Position numbers and translations under genes: made by a program. Source: a virus (taxonomy: Duplodnaviria > Heunggongvirae > Uroviricota > Caudoviricetes). Taken from it: 5,321 nt of DNA. This document shows positions 1 through 5,321 of the stretch, one piece after another (within the stretch, counting starts at the first letter, position 1; each line of letters begins with the position of its first letter). Location: IMG/VR virus record IMGVR_UViG_2706794691_000017; one strand, 5' to 3'. The notes below the pieces were generated by a model. It did not search any database and had not been told where the DNA came from. It saw nothing but the letters and a program-made list of their open reading frames with translations.

Positions 1-1083
1 ATGAAAAAATTAACAGTGGCAATTTCTGCTGTAGCTGCATCAGTACTGATGGCGATGTCTGCTCAGGCAGCTGAAATTTATAATAAAGACAGTAACAAGC
101 TGGATCTGTACGGGAAAGTTAATGCTAAGCACTACTTCTCCTCTAATGATGCAGATGATGGTGATACTACTTATGCCCGTCTTGGCTTCAAAGGTGAAAC
201 CCAAATCAACGATCAACTGACTGGTTTCGGTCAGTGGGAATATGAATTCAAAGGCAACCGCGCTGAATCTCAAGGTTCCTCCAAAGATAAAACCCGTCTT
301 GCCTTCGCTGGCCTGAAATTCGGTGACTACGGCTCCATCGATTACGGCCGTAACTACGGTGTAGCATACGACATCGGTGCGTGGACTGACGTCCTGCCAG
401 AATTCGGTGGTGACACTTGGACTCAAACAGATGTGTTCATGACTGGTCGCACCACTGGTGTTGCAACTTATCGTAACAACGACTTCTTTGGTCTGGTTGA
501 TGGTCTGAACTTTGCTGCTCAGTATCAGGGTAAAAATGACCGCACTGACGTAACTGAAGCTAATGGTGATGGTTTCGGTTTCTCCACTACTTATGAGTAT
601 GAAGGATTCGGTGTAGGTGCAACCTATGCTAAATCTGACCGCACTAATAATCAGGTTATCTACGGTAACAACAGCCTGAATGCATCTGGTCAAAATGCTG
701 AAGTATGGGCAGCTGGTCTGAAATATGATGCGAACAACATCTATCTGGCTACCACCTATTCTGAAACCCAGAACATGACTGTTTTTGGTAATAACCATAT
801 TGCCAACAAAGCACAAAACTTCGAAGTAGTTGCACAATATCAGTTCGACTTCGGTCTGCGTCCGTCCGTTGCTTACCTGCAATCTAAAGGAAAAGACTTG
901 GGTGCGTGGGGTGATCAGGACCTGGTTGAATATATTGATGTAGGTGCAACCTATTACTTCAACAAAAATATGTCCACTTTTGTTGATTACAAAATCAACC
1001 TGATTGATAAGAGCGATTTCACGAAAGCATCTGGCGTTGCTACCGATGATATCGTTGCTGTAGGTATGGTTTACCAGTTCTAA
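1..1083 (+). CDS. nmpC: Outer membrane general porin, NmpC/Lc/OmpD-like (OmpC/OmpF/PhoE family), apparently intact
   Basis: 360-aa ORF with a classic Sec signal peptide ([30 protein letters not shown]), porin-typical Gly/Tyr/Asp-rich beta-strand composition, and the C-terminal aromatic residue (..VYQF) needed for outer-membrane insertion. The protein matches my recollection of E. coli NmpC. Lies convergent to the phage Q gene, as in DLP12. Confidence 0.9.
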
Positions 1084-1099
1084 TTTGATTACTAAAAGA

Positions 1100-1133
1100 T
1101 ATGTTGCGGGAGGCTTTGCCTCCCCAACATATA
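1100..1133 (-). terminator. GC-rich imperfect hairpin with a U-tract on the minus-strand side; candidate terminator for minus-strand (Q/late) transcripts, possibly tR'-like
   Basis: Arms gttgcgggaggc (1103-1114) and gcctccccaac (1118-1128) with a ttt loop. On the minus strand the hairpin is followed by AUAUCUUUUAGU. On the plus strand it is not followed by a T-run. Confidence 0.4.
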
Positions 1134-1154
1134 AGTGGCTCCCTCAAGCCACTT
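1133..1154. repeat. Perfect 8-bp inverted repeat (aagtggct / agccactt) with 6-nt loop; stem-loop of unknown role
   Basis: Read directly: aagtggct ccctca agccactt. No clear U-tract on either side. Confidence 0.35.
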
Positions 1155-1220
1155 CCTTTAGGAGCACAACCTTGCTTCTAACTATATAAACCTTCTGTTA
1201 TATATTACCCTTTATTTTTG

Positions 1221-1254
1221 GGGGCGTTGCAACGCCCCATTTTTAATAATTTTT
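1221..1254 (+). terminator. Rho-independent terminator, plus-strand orientation (likely terminates nmpC transcript)
   Basis: Perfect palindrome ggggcgttgcaacgcccc (1221-1238) immediately followed by atttttaataattttt. On the minus strand the same hairpin is followed by an A-run, so it is unidirectional. Confidence 0.55.
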
Positions 1255-1271
1255 AGTAAACAATTGGCATA

Positions 1272-1655
1272 TTAATTAGAGTTATTAACAACGATATCCA
1301 TCTCTAACCGGATATCTAATGCCATTAACATCCCTTCAATTATGCCCTCAGCCTTCTGTAACCTTTTCCCGATATAACCATCAGAGCAGCAATGCTTACC
1401 TGCCAGTGACATGAATGTCATACCGACTACATAATAATCTACTAATAAATCGTGCAAATCGCTGTTGTTCTTTTTCAGACGGGCCATGCACCCGCAAATA
1501 ATCATCGCGTCATCGTCACAACATTGCGGGCGAGATTTTACTTTTGAAGTAATTAATCCCTTAAAACCGGCGGCAATGGACGACCAGGTCACATCTTCAT
1601 GATTATTAGCCGCCCACGCTCCCCAACGCTCAAGAACCATCTGAATATCACGCAT
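1272..1655 (-). CDS. quuD: Late-gene antiterminator Q, phage 82 / QuuD type
   Basis: Translation [26 protein letters not shown]...[16 protein letters not shown]...DIVVNNSN matches my recollection of DLP12 QuuD (127 aa), with Cys-rich putative zinc-binding motifs. ATG at 1655 is preceded by GGAG with 7-nt spacing. The ORF track's 1670 start is an upstream in-frame TTG, which I consider less likely. Confidence 0.85.
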
Positions 1656-1740
1656 CAACTTACTCCACAAAAATCAGACCAGAACGCCAATTACAAGCAA
1701 AAATCAACAAAACAGTATTAGTTGATTGTTATCTCTGACT

Positions 1741-1881
1741 TCATACTCCTGCTCCTGTCAGGGTTTTGGCGTAATTCTTCAGTATTCGGTAATCGGTCAA
1801 AACAGAACCGGGGAAACGATATAAGCGCAGATGCCCCCAGCGGTGGCGAAGAAGTTCTGCCATATAAAACTCAAACATCAT
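1741..1881 (-). CDS. ylcG: Small protein, ylcG-like (46 aa), overlapping the rusA stop
   Basis: Manual translation of the minus strand gives [46 protein letters not shown]. It sits in the rusA-to-Q position that ylcG occupies in DLP12. Below the length cutoff of the supplied ORF track. Start could alternatively be the ATG at 1878 or 1863. Confidence 0.5.
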
Positions 1882-2240
1882 TCATTCCCCATTTCGGTGA
1901 TGGTCAGTTCCAGCCTCCCACCTTTGGTAACAGGCATCTTCACAACGCGGTAATCAACGACCTGAGCATCATCCAGCCAGAAACCTGCTTTGGTGAGTGC
2001 GTCAAAAGCGGCTTTTTGCAGATTATCCAGGTCACGGCGACGGCGATCCGGCATGTGGCACTCAATACGGATTTTCACTGGCATAGCCAGGCCGATATCC
2101 AGCATTGCGTTTTTAATGATTCGGGTGACGTTATCGCGGTATGCCTGCCCTTCTGCGCTGATGTGTGTGCGCCCGCGATTATGGCGGTAATAGCGGTTAT
2201 TGCTCGGAGGCCAGGGTAATGTGATGCTGTAGGTATTCAC
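1878..2240 (-). CDS. rusA: Holliday-junction resolvase RusA (crossover junction endodeoxyribonuclease)
   Basis: 120-aa translation [38 protein letters not shown]...[11 protein letters not shown] matches my recollection of RusA. GTG start overlaps the ybcO stop (GTGA). Confidence 0.9.
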
Positions 2241-2527
2241 GCCTTAATAACCCCCTCTTTCAGCCAGATAACCTGCGTTCTCGCCATACCTTCCAGCGCG
2301 CATTCTTTTGCATACTCAGCATCGACAAAATATGTGCGGCGGTCGATTTCGTCGTGACAGGCAGAACATGCAATGGTGGCAATCAGGTCTGGCGGTTTGA
2401 TACCGGTACCGCACAATCCAGCCAGCCGGATATGTGCCAGTACTGACGTTTCAGGATTGCCATTACATACGCCAGGGATTCTTACCTGGCATTCCCGACC
2501 ACGCGCTGCTTTTCTCAAATCAGCCAT
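2237..2527 (-). CDS. ybcO: YbcO-family protein (DUF1364; Cys-rich putative nuclease/zinc-binding protein of the nin region)
   Basis: 96-aa product [42 protein letters not shown]...[11 protein letters not shown].., starting at the ATG at 2527 with a strong upstream SD (AAGGAGGA). The ORF-track start at 2566 is an upstream in-frame ATG lacking an SD. Start overlaps the ninE stop (ATGGCTGA). Confidence 0.8.
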
Positions 2528-2690
2528 GATTCCTCCTTGCTGCCAGTCGCAACCATTTTTTATCAACCAGGCTAGCGGTATATCCGAGCAGTGTTGGTAT
2601 TTCGGATGGCTTCAGCTCAGGCTTACGCTTACGACGATTTGATACTCTGTAGATGTGCCCGTTCATGACACGAATAAGCGGTGTAGCCAT
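2520..2690 (-). CDS. ninE: NinE-family protein (56 aa)
   Basis: Manual translation [59 protein letters not shown] overlaps the ybcN stop (TAATG) and the stop overlaps the ybcO start. Below the ORF-track length cutoff. Confidence 0.75.
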   Translation of the reverse strand: MATPLIRVMNGHIYRVSNRRKRKPELKPSEIPTLLGYTASLVDKKWLRLAARRNHG

Positions 2691-3145
2691 TACGCCTCCT
2701 GCTTATCGCGCAGCTGCTGGTATTCACAGCTCTGCGGAATTGTCAGGTGGCAGCCGATATTCATCGCCCAGGCTTCGACTTTGCACAGGAAGATGTACAT
2801 CTCGCCGGTTTCCAGCTCTGACGTATGGCGGAGGGATTGGACGGTGGTGACCTCGCCGGACACGACATCTACACGGTCTTTGCTTTCGTAGCCGAGATAG
2901 GTGTGCTTCATCGCGTCTTTGACCCACTCAGGCGTAGCGAAGGTCTTGCCGCGGGCGATGAGATATTCGCTGATCTCCGTGTACCACATGTGGCTGAGCG
3001 CGTTCTGCGACAGGCTGCGCTTCTCGCGCCACGGCTTAACCTGCAGGCGTAAGCATTGCCCGGCATCCAGCAATGGCTGAATCTGCTGGCCGATGGCCGC
3101 GAAGTTACCGCGATGGAGTTTGATGCCGTCTACTGGCAGAGTCAT
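2690..3145 (-). CDS. ybcN: YbcN-family prophage protein (nin-region; reported base-flipping DNA-binding protein in E. coli)
   Basis: 151-aa ORF MTLPVDGIKLHRGNFAAIGQQIQPLLDAGQCLRLQVKPWREKRSLSQNALSHMWYTEISEYL.. matches my recollection of DLP12 YbcN. SD GGGAGG upstream. ATG overlaps the stop of the upstream small ORF (ATGA). Confidence 0.85.
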   Translation of the reverse strand: MTLPVDGIKLHRGNFAAIGQQIQPLLDAGQCLRLQVKPWREKRSLSQNALSHMWYTEISEYLIARGKTFATPEWVKDAMKHTYLGYESKDRVDVVSGEVTTVQSLRHTSELETGEMYIFLCKVEAWAMNIGCHLTIPQSCEYQQLRDKQEA

Positions 3146-3237
3146 ACGGCCTCCCTAACGGAAACCGCAGAATGCAGAAAATCGCAGGTGCATTTCTGCA
3201 TCTGTGACAAGGTGATGAGTTCAGATTGTGGTCGCAT
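3142..3237 (-). CDS. ylcH: Small ORF (31 aa), ylcH-like, translationally coupled to ybcN
   Basis: Manual translation MRPQSELITLSQMQKCTCDFLHSAVSVREAV*. Preceded by an in-frame stop and an AGGGGA SD-like sequence. TGA overlaps the ybcN ATG. Identity as ylcH is from synteny and recollection only. Confidence 0.4.
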   Translation of the reverse strand: MRPQSELITLSQMQKCTCDFLHSAVSVREAV

Positions 3238-3365
3238 TTAAGTCCCCTTAAATGCGCAGAAGTCACCGGAGTTGTTCAGGCTCCGATGAGAGGATTATGG
3301 CGGATTGATTACGATAAATCAAAACTATCTTGAAGCCAAAACAGTGATCTTCGCTTTAAAAACCT

Positions 3366-3373
3366 TGTATACT
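3366..3373 (+). promoter_or_regulatory. Candidate extended -10 element (TG + TATACT) upstream of the AT-rich cassette; no convincing -35
   Basis: Sequence ttgTATACT lies about 37 nt upstream of the ATG at 3410. A TTGAAG at 3330-3335 is too far away (about 32 nt) to serve as its -35. Sequence-gazing only. Confidence 0.25.
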
Positions 3374-3409
3374 TTCACCTAATCACAGCCAGAACTATGG
3401 ATCTAACCA

Positions 3410-3787
3410 ATGACCAACAAAGAAAACAAAGATAAATATATTAACAAGTTCAAGAAAGAGCTTTCAAAATATATACAACCAACTGCTGGAGTGGACATTC
3501 AATTATTTAACTCTAAGGATGGTGGTGGTGTAATTAAAGCCACTTTGAATAGAAGTGGAAAAAGAAAATCATCTATTGCTGGTAATTTTACTAAATTAGG
3601 TGAGGCAATTACCTCGAGTGGGCAGAGGGTTTTTGGTGGTGATCTATCAAATGTGAATTTTTACGGAACAAATACGATTTTTGATGGAGATACAATATTT
3701 TTAATTAAATCACCTGATTCAGAGGAGTGGTCATCACAAAAAGCTTCCAAAGACGTAGAGGGCATCGTATTTGGAGGGAAAAAATGA
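3410..3787 (+). CDS. Hypothetical protein, 125 aa, hydrophilic, Gly/Lys/Ser-rich, no signal peptide or TM segment; unassigned family (cassette gene A)
   Basis: Long uninterrupted ORF in a strongly AT-rich context. Product MTNKENKDKYINKFKKELSKYIQ...GGDLSNVNFYGTNTIFDGDTIFLIKSPDSEEW...GIVFGGKK. Weak or absent SD. I do not recognise the family. Confidence 0.6.
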   Translation: MTNKENKDKYINKFKKELSKYIQPTAGVDIQLFNSKDGGGVIKATLNRSGKRKSSIAGNFTKLGEAITSSGQRVFGGDLSNVNFYGTNTIFDGDTIFLIKSPDSEEWSSQKASKDVEGIVFGGKK

Positions 3788-3869
3788 TTAACATTACTAC
3801 TAAGGATGCACTCAAGTCAGTGGTGAAGTAAGAGATCTAGTAATTCTTCTTGAAACTGATGGAAAAACG

Positions 3870-4211
3870 GTGTCTGATTATTTGCAGCCAATCCCTCCCA
3901 AAAAAGATACACACTGGAGCATGATTTTCATTCCGGTAGCAATTTATATACTACTTAATCTTGTATACATTATTGCTCACCCATTATTTCCTGAAAAATA
4001 TCTAAAAACATCAACATCTATATTTCTATTCATTTCCTTCATATTAAGTGCAATAGTAGCATATTTTGTTTTCCATAAGCATAAATCTGCCACTCTATCC
4101 ATATGCAGCTTAGTGTTCTTAGTGTTAATTGTAGGTGCTAACGTAGGGTTTATCAGTTACAGCGACCTAACACAAAAAGCGACGCAAAAATTAGATAGTT
4201 TGTCTAAATAA
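3870..4211 (+). CDS. Hypothetical small integral membrane protein, 113 aa, about 3 predicted TM helices; unassigned family (cassette gene B)
   Basis: GTG start at 3870 (an internal ATG at 3918 is an alternative). Hydrophobic stretches WSMIFIPVAIYILLNLVYIIA, TSIFLFISFILSAIVAYFVF and LSICSLVFLVLIVGANVGFI are separated by short charged loops (PEKYLK, HKHKSAT). AT-rich codon usage matches gene A. Confidence 0.6.
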   Translation: MSDYLQPIPPKKDTHWSMIFIPVAIYILLNLVYIIAHPLFPEKYLKTSTSIFLFISFILSAIVAYFVFHKHKSATLSICSLVFLVLIVGANVGFISYSDLTQKATQKLDSLSK

Positions 4212-4218
4212 TTATGTT

Positions 4219-4266
4219 GCCATGCGAAGTATGCATGGCTGCATGTCTGCCTTCCATTTAAAATGG
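4219..4266 (+). other. Inverted repeats downstream of cassette gene B (gccatgc..gcatggc stem; palindrome ccatttaaaatgg); possible weak terminator or site
   Basis: 7-bp stem at 4219-4225 / 4233-4239 with 7-nt loop, and a 13-bp palindrome at 4254-4266. No strong U-tract. Confidence 0.2.
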
Positions 4267-4318
4267 GCTAAGACCTATAACCCTAAATATTATTCTTTAT
4301 TATCTTCTTTACCACTTC

Positions 4319-4341
4319 GGTGATGCTGCCAACTTACTGAT
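4319..4341 (+). repeat. IS1 left terminal inverted repeat (IRL)
   Basis: GGTGATGCTGCCAACTTACTGAT, imperfect inverted match to 5064-5086. Confidence 0.85.
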
Positions 4342-4373
4342 TTAGTGTATGATGGTGTTTTTGAGGTGCTCCA

Positions 4374-4577
4374 GTGGCTTCTGTTTCTATCAGCTGTCCC
4401 TCCTGTTCAGCTACTGACGGGGTGGTGCGTAACGGCAAAAGCACTGCCGGACATCAGCGCTATCTCTGCTCTCACTGCCGTAAAACATGGCAACTGCAGT
4501 TCACTTACACCGCTTCTCAACCCGGTACGCACCAGAAAATCATTGATATTGTCAGCGCCAGTGATATAAGACGGTAA
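4374..4577 (+). CDS. insA: IS1 InsA, C-terminally truncated variant (66 aa; canonical InsA is 91 aa)
   Basis: GTG start. [58 protein letters not shown] matches the InsA zinc-finger N-terminus, then diverges (IVSASDIRR*) and stops at the TAA at 4575-4577, upstream of the slippery site. Confidence 0.7.
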
Positions 4578-4585
4578 TTCGCCAT

Positions 4586-5071
4586 TTGGATTGTCCGCTC
4601 CACCCAACAGATTTTACGTCACTTAAAAAACTCAGGCCGCAGTCGGTAACCTCGCGCATACAGCCGGGCAGTGACGTCATCGTCTGCGCGGAAATGGACG
4701 AACAGTGGGGCTATGTCGGGGCTAAATCGCGCCAGCGCTGGCTGTTTTACGCGTATGACAGTCTCCGGAAGACGGTTGTTGCGCACGTATTCGGTGAACG
4801 CACTATGGCGACGCTGGGGCGTCTTATGAGCCTGCTGTCACCCTTTGACGTGGTGATATGGATGACGGATGGCTGGCCGCTGTATGAATCCCGCCTGAAG
4901 GGAAAGCTGCACGTAATCAGCAAGCGATATACGCAGCGAATTGAGCGGCATAACCTGAATCTGAGGCAGCACCTGGCACGGCTGGGACGGAAGTCGCTGT
5001 CGTTCTCAAAATCGGTGGAGCTGCATGACAAAGTCATCGGGCATTATCTGAACATAAAACACTATCAATAA
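4586..5071 (+). CDS. insB: IS1 InsB reading frame (transposase catalytic part); N-terminus differs from canonical
   Basis: From ..[50 protein letters not shown]... to ..HYLNIKHYQ* matches InsB. The first 8 residues (MDCPLHPT) come from the divergent block. Confidence 0.75.
4623..4631 (+). promoter_or_regulatory. IS1 programmed -1 ribosomal frameshift motif (TTAAAAAAC) that normally produces the InsAB' transposase
   Basis: Motif read directly, in the conserved position relative to insB. The upstream insA frame is interrupted by a stop in this copy. Confidence 0.6.
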
Positions 5072-5086
5072 GTTGGAGTCATTACC
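5064..5086 (-). repeat. IS1 right terminal inverted repeat (IRR)
   Basis: Reverse complement GGTAATGACTCCAACTTATTGAT. Confidence 0.85.
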
Positions 5087-5321
5087 GTGCGATGGCATAT
5101 TTTATGTTGTCATTAATGATTTCAATAATATGTGGAAGGTGATGGAATTTCAGCAACAGATCTATTGCCTCTTGTTGCTCTGAATCATTTAAATCGAAAA
5201 ACCAGTCACCACCGCTGGCAAGCCACATATTTCCATCGCCAGTTTCGAATGCATCCAACGCCATCGCTTCGTGGTTGCCTTTAACCGACGTAAACCAGGG
5301 GTGGTTTAGCAGGCGCAGCAC
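5082..5321 (-). pseudogene. Lambda-type Ser/Thr protein phosphatase (metallophosphoesterase, NinI/PPase-like), 3'-truncated at the IS1 junction; 5' end beyond window
   Basis: Translation ..HPWFTSVKGNHEAMALDAFETGDGNMWLASGGDWFFDLNDSEQQEAIDLLLKFHHLPHIIEIINDNIKYAIA aligns with the lambda PPase region FPWFRAVRGNHEQMM...GGGWFFNLDYD...LPLIIELVSKDKKYVI, including the GNHE motif. The ORF then runs into the IS1 right end (junction 5086/5087), where a stop (5082-5084) occurs. The expected C-terminal third is absent. Confidence 0.75.

Follow-up and report, generated by a model that had tools for sequence, protein, structure and literature searches.

Under the Rex model of phage lambda, a soluble partner senses infection and opens a membrane partner, and the membrane potential collapses. 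In the SpoIISA/SpoIISB system of Bacillus, the genes of which are small, adjacent and co-transcribed, a toxin with three transmembrane (TM) helices is neutralised by a small cytosolic protein that binds its cytoplasmic domain. Here, we analyse a gene with a comparable setting, hereafter gene A (positions 3410-3787, plus strand), in a 5,321-nucleotide (nt) stretch of DNA from a virus of the class Caudoviricetes (IMG/VR record IMGVR_UViG_2706794691_000017; the whole stretch is referred to as the window), together with the gene that directly follows it, gene B. What is new is that gene A constitutes one half of a conserved, phylum-spanning two-gene module and has a dedicated partner with 3 predicted TM helices. 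The protein families themselves, PHROG 18061 for A and PHROG 16940 for B, have already been catalogued, both with the label 'unknown function', so that membership names each family without explaining what it does.

The architecture, and only the architecture, of the A-B pair resembles that of lambda RexAB: both are two-gene prophage units in which the genes are co-oriented and that for a soluble protein lies upstream of that for an inner-membrane protein of ~140 amino acids (aa) with multiple TM helices, and the position and orientation of A-B would likewise allow expression in the lysogen. However, the gene A product has 125 aa and RexA 279 aa, B combines a cytoplasmic head with 3 predicted TM helices whereas RexB has 4, and A-B does not adjoin cI but occupies the slot between the replication gene P and ninB. 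As candidate homologs, both Rex proteins were rejected. Comparison of RexA by hhalign with an alignment of 82 gene A relatives (A3) yielded a probability of 0.04 (E 0.88), and for B against RexB, BLASTP gave E 0.57 and comparison by the profile A7 a probability of 0.3 (E 0.18-0.57 overall). The P-ninB slot is the position of ren in phage lambda, and A-B shares with Ren the character of a small accessory locus between P and ninB, annotated in that case as 'Ren-like exclusion protein'; yet lambda ren is a single gene, co-directional with the pR operon, and the comparison of A3 with Ren reached an hhalign probability of only 0.15. Thus, given that homology was tested and none was found, A-B falls outside the RexA, RexB and Ren families.

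The comparison with toxin-antitoxin (TA) systems is similarly divided. In SpoIISA, the cytoplasmic domain is large and C-terminal, and the toxin gene comes first, whereas the head of B is N-terminal and comprises ~40 aa, and gene A precedes gene B. With type II TA systems, A-B has in common the layout of two small, adjacent, co-directional and overlapping genes but not the sequence hallmarks, as A, its 82 relatives and B match no Pfam family above threshold. A further parallel comes from two mycobacteriophage defences with two components each, Sbash gp30/gp31 and Butters gp30/gp31. In both, neighbouring prophage genes are described as lysogenically expressed, defending against heterotypic phages and involving a membrane protein (PMC6426596, PMC7542560). 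The action proposed there is loss of membrane potential (PMC6426596) or interaction of the two products (PMC7542560). The hosts of these phages belong to an unrelated phylum, the likeness to A-B drawn here is one of description, and the experimental defence phenotypes are those of the Sbash and Butters pairs.

Gene A is a conserved gene under purifying selection

Gene A is an open reading frame (ORF) of 125 codons that runs from the ATG at 3410 to the TGA at 3785-3787 on the plus strand, exactly where the first-pass annotation, made from the letters of the window alone, had placed it. Its 125-aa product is identical to WP_000182282.1, and an identical protein is on record from Shigella sonnei. 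Numerous partial sequences from S. sonnei fall into its look-up cluster as well, which hints at a source of S. sonnei type for the window. The protein is basic and hydrophilic (17 K, 15 G and 13 S among 125 residues; isoelectric point [pI] 9.5; grand average of hydropathy -0.62). The features singled out at first reading are all present, namely, a lysine-rich N-terminal peptide (residues 4-21, KENKDKYINKFKKELSKY), three glycine clusters (DGGGV, 37-41; FGGDLS, 75-80; FGGKK, 121-125) and a hydrophobic-aromatic segment (residues 83-101, NFYGTNTIFDGDTIFLIKS). The protein was also correctly read as soluble: the highest 19-residue Kyte-Doolittle mean is only 0.43, so that there is no hydrophobic stretch that could form a TM helix or the core of a signal peptide. 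However, richness in lysine and glycine turned out to be a trait of the enterobacterial copies rather than of the family, in which pI values range from 4.7 to 9.9, and, among the glycines, only G39 and G86 are near-invariant, G77 is found in 67% of the sequences and the FGGKK tail is not conserved.

That gene A is a real gene, conserved and held under purifying selection, is evident from comparison with a 76%-identical copy in another prophage (ratio of nonsynonymous to synonymous substitution rates [dN/dS] 0.077, with dS saturated). The copy in Escherichia coli strain A7 differs from that in the window by two synonymous changes only, and an ORF of at least 125 aa arose in just 12 of 2000 shuffles (0.6%) of the region 3250-4300, which has a GC content of 35%. 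Upstream, a candidate -10 hexamer, TATACT, lies on the plus strand at 3368-3373, ~37 nt 5' of the ATG, and the corresponding position in diverged cassettes reads TGATATAGTAT(A/G)AT. The Shine-Dalgarno sequence, GGA at ~10 nt upstream, is weak.

The gene A family extends far beyond its enterobacterial members. A word-indexed search recovered only 13 close relatives, the named ones from Enterobacter, Escherichia and Shigella and some of metagenomic origin. By profile search of 1.84 billion cluster representatives, 111 relatives were obtained at E<=1e-3, most of them full-length (120-135 aa) and 20-35% identical; a 1251-aa cadherin-repeat protein (P0113) was discarded as a false positive of this search. 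In the 82-sequence alignment, K100 is invariant and Y10, G39, F84, G86, T87, I99, W107 and D115 are conserved in at least 90% of the sequences, with the family signature ...F-x-GTN...(L)IK(D)...W....A..D.... Gene A matches PHROG 18061 over its entire length (E 9.3e-85, residues 1-125 of 125), as do all 82 aligned members. By contrast with this clear membership, and in agreement with the first-pass annotation, no recognisable domain or catalytic motif emerged: as a single sequence, gene A had no match in Pfam, NCBIfam, PADLOC or PDB sequences, its 82 relatives gave no Pfam family above threshold and only scattered single sub-threshold matches, and a confident match to a housekeeping or phage structural family, although looked for, did not appear among these results.

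In a scan of GTDB with one genome per species, family members were found in Nitrospira, Neptuniibacter, Nitrosomonas, Syntrophaceae, Rhodocyclaceae, Acidiferrales, Synechococcus, Horticoccus, Thiohalobacter and others, and the family thus spans phyla. The copies in a Nitrospira metagenome-assembled genome and of the marine gammaproteobacterial type are 73% identical, a level of identity between phyla that is a sign of horizontal transfer. Within E. coli, the intact cassette is present in only 46 of 5426 complete genomes, and its GC content of 33-34% stands against 46-51% in the surrounding loci. Literature searches by the two protein accessions, WP_000182282.1 and, for B, WP_000608370.1, found no paper on either protein, and none was found on the lambdoid nin region or the P-ninB slot as a defence locus.

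Genes A and B form an obligate pair

Genes A and B are obligately paired, translationally coupled and mobile, and the pair resides in accessory positions. A B-type gene lies immediately 3' of gene A in all eight enterobacterial prophage loci (L001-L008), despite their differing replication and nin modules, and the same holds for marine and metagenomic relatives in which A is 29-35% identical, for three non-enterobacterial IMG/VR contigs, and for 12 of the 13 GTDB loci, including those in Nitrospira, Synechococcus, Acidiferrales and Horticoccus. At the 13th, a B-like head is encoded in the DNA 3' of gene A, where no ORF was called. The stop codon of A overlaps the start codon of B, as ATGA in intact enterobacterial copies and as ATGA or TAATG in nearly all loci; given this coupling, A is expected to be produced in amounts no smaller than those of B. 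Furthermore, the two proteins have diverged together, with pairwise identities that correlate at r = 0.93, a value reached by none of 5000 Mantel permutations. The first-pass annotation missed that the adjoining gene is its obligate partner and that this partner is frameshifted in the window.

Intact B has 142 aa (WP_000608370.1), matches PHROG 16940 (E 2e-74) and consists of a soluble N-terminal head of ~40 residues, three hydrophobic segments predicted to form TM helices and a short polar tail, with a basic motif, HKHK or RFK, that is conserved in the TM2-TM3 loop. By the positive-inside rule, the head is predicted to face the cytoplasm, that is, the same side of the membrane as A. Gene B, too, is under purifying selection (dN/dS 0.08-0.13). 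As with A, searches were uninformative on function: in Pfam and NCBIfam, nothing exceeded the threshold, and the sub-threshold Pfam matches were to generic multi-TM families only, profile comparison with PDB gave a best E of 0.69, and B together with 18 relatives yielded a single PADLOC match, at E 0.013. One public source names B a 'VIT1/CCC1 family predicted Fe2+/Mn2+ transporter'; no VIT1 match came up in Pfam, and the name looks like an over-reaching automatic annotation.

Two distant, N-terminally extended homologs of A (220-243 aa) also precede partners with 3 TM segments (L060, 3990-6252; L058, 258-3051). One of these pairs is found in an integrative and conjugative element (ICE; TrwC, TraG), beside a gene for a caspase-like Peptidase_C14 protein, and the other beside a gene for a 545-aa protein, near a phage Rep_O gene. 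The 545-aa protein has no Pfam match and, judged by eye, reads like a GHKL-type ATPase.

Predicted fold of the gene A product

Modelling with AlphaFold2 from the 82-sequence alignment produced a confident prediction (predicted local distance difference test [pLDDT] 93, predicted template modelling score 0.87); a model built from nine close homologs only was poor (pLDDT 58) and was discarded. The predicted layout starts with an N-terminal helix (residues 4-19), continues with a three-stranded meander (27-35, 40-47 and 52-60), a short helix (63-70), the conserved loop and a beta hairpin that bears the GTN and IK motifs (87-92 and 95-100), and ends with a pair of C-terminal helices (104-107 and 109-124). 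The domain had initially been suggested to be beta-rich, whereas the model is a mixed alpha/beta fold with five strands and four helices. The predicted fold appears to have no solved relative: the best Foldseek match in PDB had E 0.035 and a template modelling score of 0.31, and the profile search of PDB sequences was uninformative (best E 0.06). The best match in BFVD, an uncharacterised 209-aa phage protein (E 1.1e-3, template modelling score 0.61), is probably itself a member of the A family and uninformative on function. The proposal that gene A encodes a binding or sensor domain is plausible and is indirectly supported by the obligate association with a membrane protein and by a single HNH nuclease fusion, described below.

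A pentapeptide-repeat identity, to which the string DLSNVNFYGTN and the protein P0013 had drawn attention, was rejected, as Pfam gave no such match and the model is alpha/beta with four helices. In P0013 (127 aa, contig L057), the C-terminal 48 residues of gene A follow a pentapeptide-repeat N-terminus, with the junction at 'DLSNVNF', and an intact gene B comes next. This protein is probably an assembly chimera, given that the contig is 1145 bp long and has a coverage of 1.65x.

Genomic company of the module

The module is carried on prophages, on an ICE and in small two-gene islets among housekeeping genes of bacterial chromosomes. The flanking phage genes vary with the carrier, with YbcN, NinB or DUF1367 genes on one side and P, Ead/Ea22, DUF4752 or HNH genes on the other, and the neighbourhood scan revealed no consistent third gene beside A-B. 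Across the enterobacterial prophages examined, A-B without exception runs antisense to the early-right operon, with an AT-rich upstream region of its own. In one of them (L002, 5665-11261), the P-ninB slot also harbours a gene for a pore-forming, colicin-like protein, accompanied by an immunity-like gene, as well as DndB-like and HNH genes, and the slot seems to collect competition genes. Elsewhere, a copy of A-B (L018) lies beside the TA genes BrnA and HigB/HTH and beside Ymh.

The effector of the module may be exchangeable. A 447-aa protein (P0087, L016/L017) carries an A domain (residues 7-119) in fusion with an HNH nuclease, together with a C-terminal domain of unknown function, and this suggests a regulatory or sensing role for A as a unit attachable to different effectors. 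The HNH half otherwise occurs as a stand-alone protein of ~250 aa, once (L061) adjoining SIR2_2 and two integrases.

Further accessory genes lie in the carrier prophages. In strain A7 (L001, 11676-14146), an ImmA/IrrE metallopeptidase gene and a gene for a DUF4411 protein lie near the repressor gene, and iss lies near the lysis genes; in L006 and L008 (13685-14446), a KilA-N/BstA_C (BstA-type) gene is found near the repressor gene.

Proposed function and alternative interpretations

We propose, tentatively and with slightly less than even confidence, that A regulates B as a membrane effector and that the outcome is phage exclusion or abortive infection, a reading built on sequence comparison and on analogy with the systems introduced above. 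Under this model, A would be the soluble cytoplasmic subunit, and B, with its cytoplasmic head, three TM helices and short C-terminal tail, the small inner-membrane subunit of a self-contained, horizontally mobile two-gene module. A would bind the cytoplasmic head of B and control a membrane-damaging or membrane-gating activity, either by restraining B in the manner of an antitoxin or by triggering it once an infecting phage is sensed, and competing phages would be excluded or their infection aborted. The lambdoid prophage cassette would be expressed in the lysogen from a promoter of its own. During lytic growth of the prophage itself, antiterminated pR transcription might oppose the cassette, given its antisense site 3' of a hairpin resembling lambda tR2. 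A bolder version of this proposal, possible in our view but on balance doubtful, is that A represents a sensor or regulator fold new to description, with interchangeable effectors (usually a 3-TM protein, once an HNH nuclease), and that A-B is a phylum-spanning exclusion or abortive-infection system of prophages, ICEs and mini-islets that has been missed by defence catalogues.

If the proposal holds, a compact module of ~0.8 kb, ranging from E. coli and Shigella to Nitrospira, cyanobacteria and Acidobacteriota, would add a family to the prophage-encoded immunity and toxin systems, combining a sensor fold that has no solved relative with a minimal membrane effector, and would offer a tractable model for the gating of a three-helix membrane protein by a small soluble one. 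In lambdoid prophages, the P-ninB slot would then be a place that can hold competition genes, and the module would bear on phage therapy against uropathogenic E. coli, given that strains 536 (ECP_RS05855/ECP_RS05850) and F11 carry intact copies.

Several observations weigh against this proposal. By tblastn, A had no match in 50,697 phage-isolate records or 72,556 plasmids, and its relative P0123 had none in the same phage records. A promoter scan called nothing upstream of gene A, the TATACT hexamer having been missed on account of a poor -35 element. In PADLOC-DB v2.0.0, A hit 0 families at E<=10, and the 82 relatives produced scattered single matches at E>=0.002, so that no defence model catalogued there was matched by A, B or their relatives. 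Around 17 non-enterobacterial loci, most of the 109 neighbouring genes have housekeeping roles (tRNA synthetases, ThiC, LigA, MFS transporters); PADLOC candidate matches were confined to isolated single loci, and this sample, too small for statistics, gave no clear sign of defence islands. The A-HNH fusion is a single protein, present on two short contigs whose run accessions are consecutive. The invariant polar residues K100, D115, T87 and Y10 could mark an enzymatic or ligand-binding site instead. Finally, outside enterobacteria, decay of the pair is not one-sided, with A truncated in one locus (L034) and B in another (L035).

Of the alternatives, a plain addiction pair survives best, although we consider it rather unlikely. 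B would then be a membrane toxin and A its antitoxin, and the pair would stabilise the carrier prophage, ICE or islet and have no part in exclusion. The 4-nt overlap of the upstream with the downstream gene is the usual antitoxin-toxin layout, two degraded enterobacterial copies have lost B and kept A, copies occur among TA genes (BrnA and HigB/HTH in L018) and as isolated two-gene islets among housekeeping genes, and the neighbours of the 17 loci, in this small sample, show no clear defence-island enrichment. Typical type II antitoxins, however, autoregulate through a DNA-binding domain, of which Pfam detects none in A, and no TA family was matched in Pfam or PADLOC; moreover, the fusion of A to a nuclease and the slot beside competition genes agree no less well with a sensor-effector layout. 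In any case, both readings may hold together, as abortive infection is the mode of action of many TA pairs.

A second alternative, which we hold to be improbable, places the pair outside phage conflict altogether, as a lysogenic-conversion or physiological membrane module in which B would be a channel or transporter subunit and A a regulatory, ligand-binding or enzymatic one. The VIT1/CCC1-type Fe/Mn transporter name given to B by one source would suit such a role, were it not for the missing Pfam match, and the invariant K100, D115, T87, Y10 and W107 suggest that A has a defined pocket or an active site. Housekeeping neighbours in many phyla are consistent with it as well, whereas the patchy distribution across phyla, including the 73% identity noted above, and carriage on prophages and an ICE point to a selfish or conflict module, and presence in so few complete E. 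coli genomes also counts against a physiological function.

It is very unlikely that A-B serves the cycle of its carrier phage, be it by Ren-like protection, by lysis timing of the holin/antiholin kind or as a replication accessory. The cassette does sit in the ren slot of lambda, B has three TM helices like class I holins, and in three phage-like contigs (L012, L013 and L036) the pair lies between early and lysis genes and points the same way as the other phage genes called there. In all enterobacterial prophages examined, by contrast, it opposes the early-right operon from behind its own AT-rich region; the same pair occurs outside phages, near ligA and tRNA synthetase genes and in an ICE; neither similarity to Ren nor a Pfam holin match was found; and the carrier prophages already own holin, endolysin and spanin genes. 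Lastly, that gene A is a chance ORF in AT-rich filler DNA, functional in no genome, is an idea for which the weak Shine-Dalgarno sequence and the lack of a called promoter might be cited, and its probability is close to nil, refuted as it already is by low dN/dS at saturated dS, 111 distant full-length relatives with conserved motifs, a model with pLDDT 93 and the rarity of so long an ORF among shuffled sequences.

State of the module in the window

In the window, the module is most likely dead and gene A an orphan in a decaying prophage remnant, given that B is frameshifted and the prophage is truncated by a copy of the insertion sequence (IS) IS1. Gene B starts at an ATG that overlaps the gene A stop, and its 5' fragment (3784-3831, plus strand) goes off frame after codon 8 and stops after 15 codons (MINITTKDALKSVVK*). 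The cause is a single G absent at 3808-3809 (plus strand) relative to intact copies (GGATGGCACT -> GGATGCACT). The remainder of the gene, with the rest of the head and all three predicted TM helices, follows in the shifted frame on the plus strand at 3810-4211 (TQVSGEVRDLV... to the stop). Because of the lost G, the ORF list contains B only as a 113-aa ORF with a GTG start at 3870-4211. The IMG/VR contig L043, of the same lineage, is identical to the window over positions 1-4609 and has the same frameshift and the IS1. A second, independent frameshift of B with A intact occurs in another enterobacterial viral contig (L051), and B may be the costly part of the pair. The locus in the window is better annotated as a decayed module than as a working gene of unknown function.

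Window layout and prophage setting

The window represents part of a DLP12-type lambdoid prophage. Its left part holds an ompC/nmpC-type porin gene on the plus strand (1-1083), followed on the minus strand by quuD (1272-1670), ylcG, rusA (1878-2240), ybcO (2237-2566), ninE and the NinB-like gene ybcN (2690-3145). The last is the first gene of the nin operon and the left neighbour of gene A, from which its transcription diverges. Gene A and the gene B remnant ORF (3870-4211, plus strand) lie in the same low-GC core, from ~3300 to ~4300, where GC content is 30-39%, against 50-60% in the nin genes. The earlier description of gene A as the first gene of a discrete cassette is borne out by GC content and by comparison of neighbourhoods. 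Indeed, the stretch 3250-4319 is 99.5-99.8% identical to the 46 complete E. coli genomes in which the cassette lies between ybcN and P, and in intact relatives (E. coli A7 and uropathogenic E. coli 536) the low-GC stretch has this position, antisense to the early-right operon. A terminator-like hairpin on the minus strand at 4265-4283 lies just 3' of the end of gene P in intact prophages, placed like lambda tR2 between the convergent P gene and A-B cassette, where it would be expected to terminate transcription. Rfam yielded no match anywhere in the window.

In place of P and everything beyond, the window has an IS1 copy of 768 bp on the plus strand (4319-5086), and the junction between cassette and IS1 is absent from complete E. 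coli genomes. At the far side of IS1, the cassette is thereby connected with a different gene of the nin region, and a deletion or rearrangement mediated by IS1 is implied. The fragment concerned (5082-5321, minus strand) is the 5' part of a lambda-type Ser/Thr phosphatase gene with a GNHE motif, which runs off the end of the window and the reading frame of which ends inside the right end of IS1.

Within insA of the IS1 copy, a 60-nt block (4550-4609) is not IS1 sequence and corresponds to the left end of an IS21-family element; IS1 resumes in register directly after it, and InsA is truncated to 67 aa. In contig L043, which equals the window up to position 4609, the IS21 element runs on into istA. 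The equal-length substitution at 4550-4609 looks like an artefact of collapsed-repeat or reference-guided assembly, or an unusual scar.

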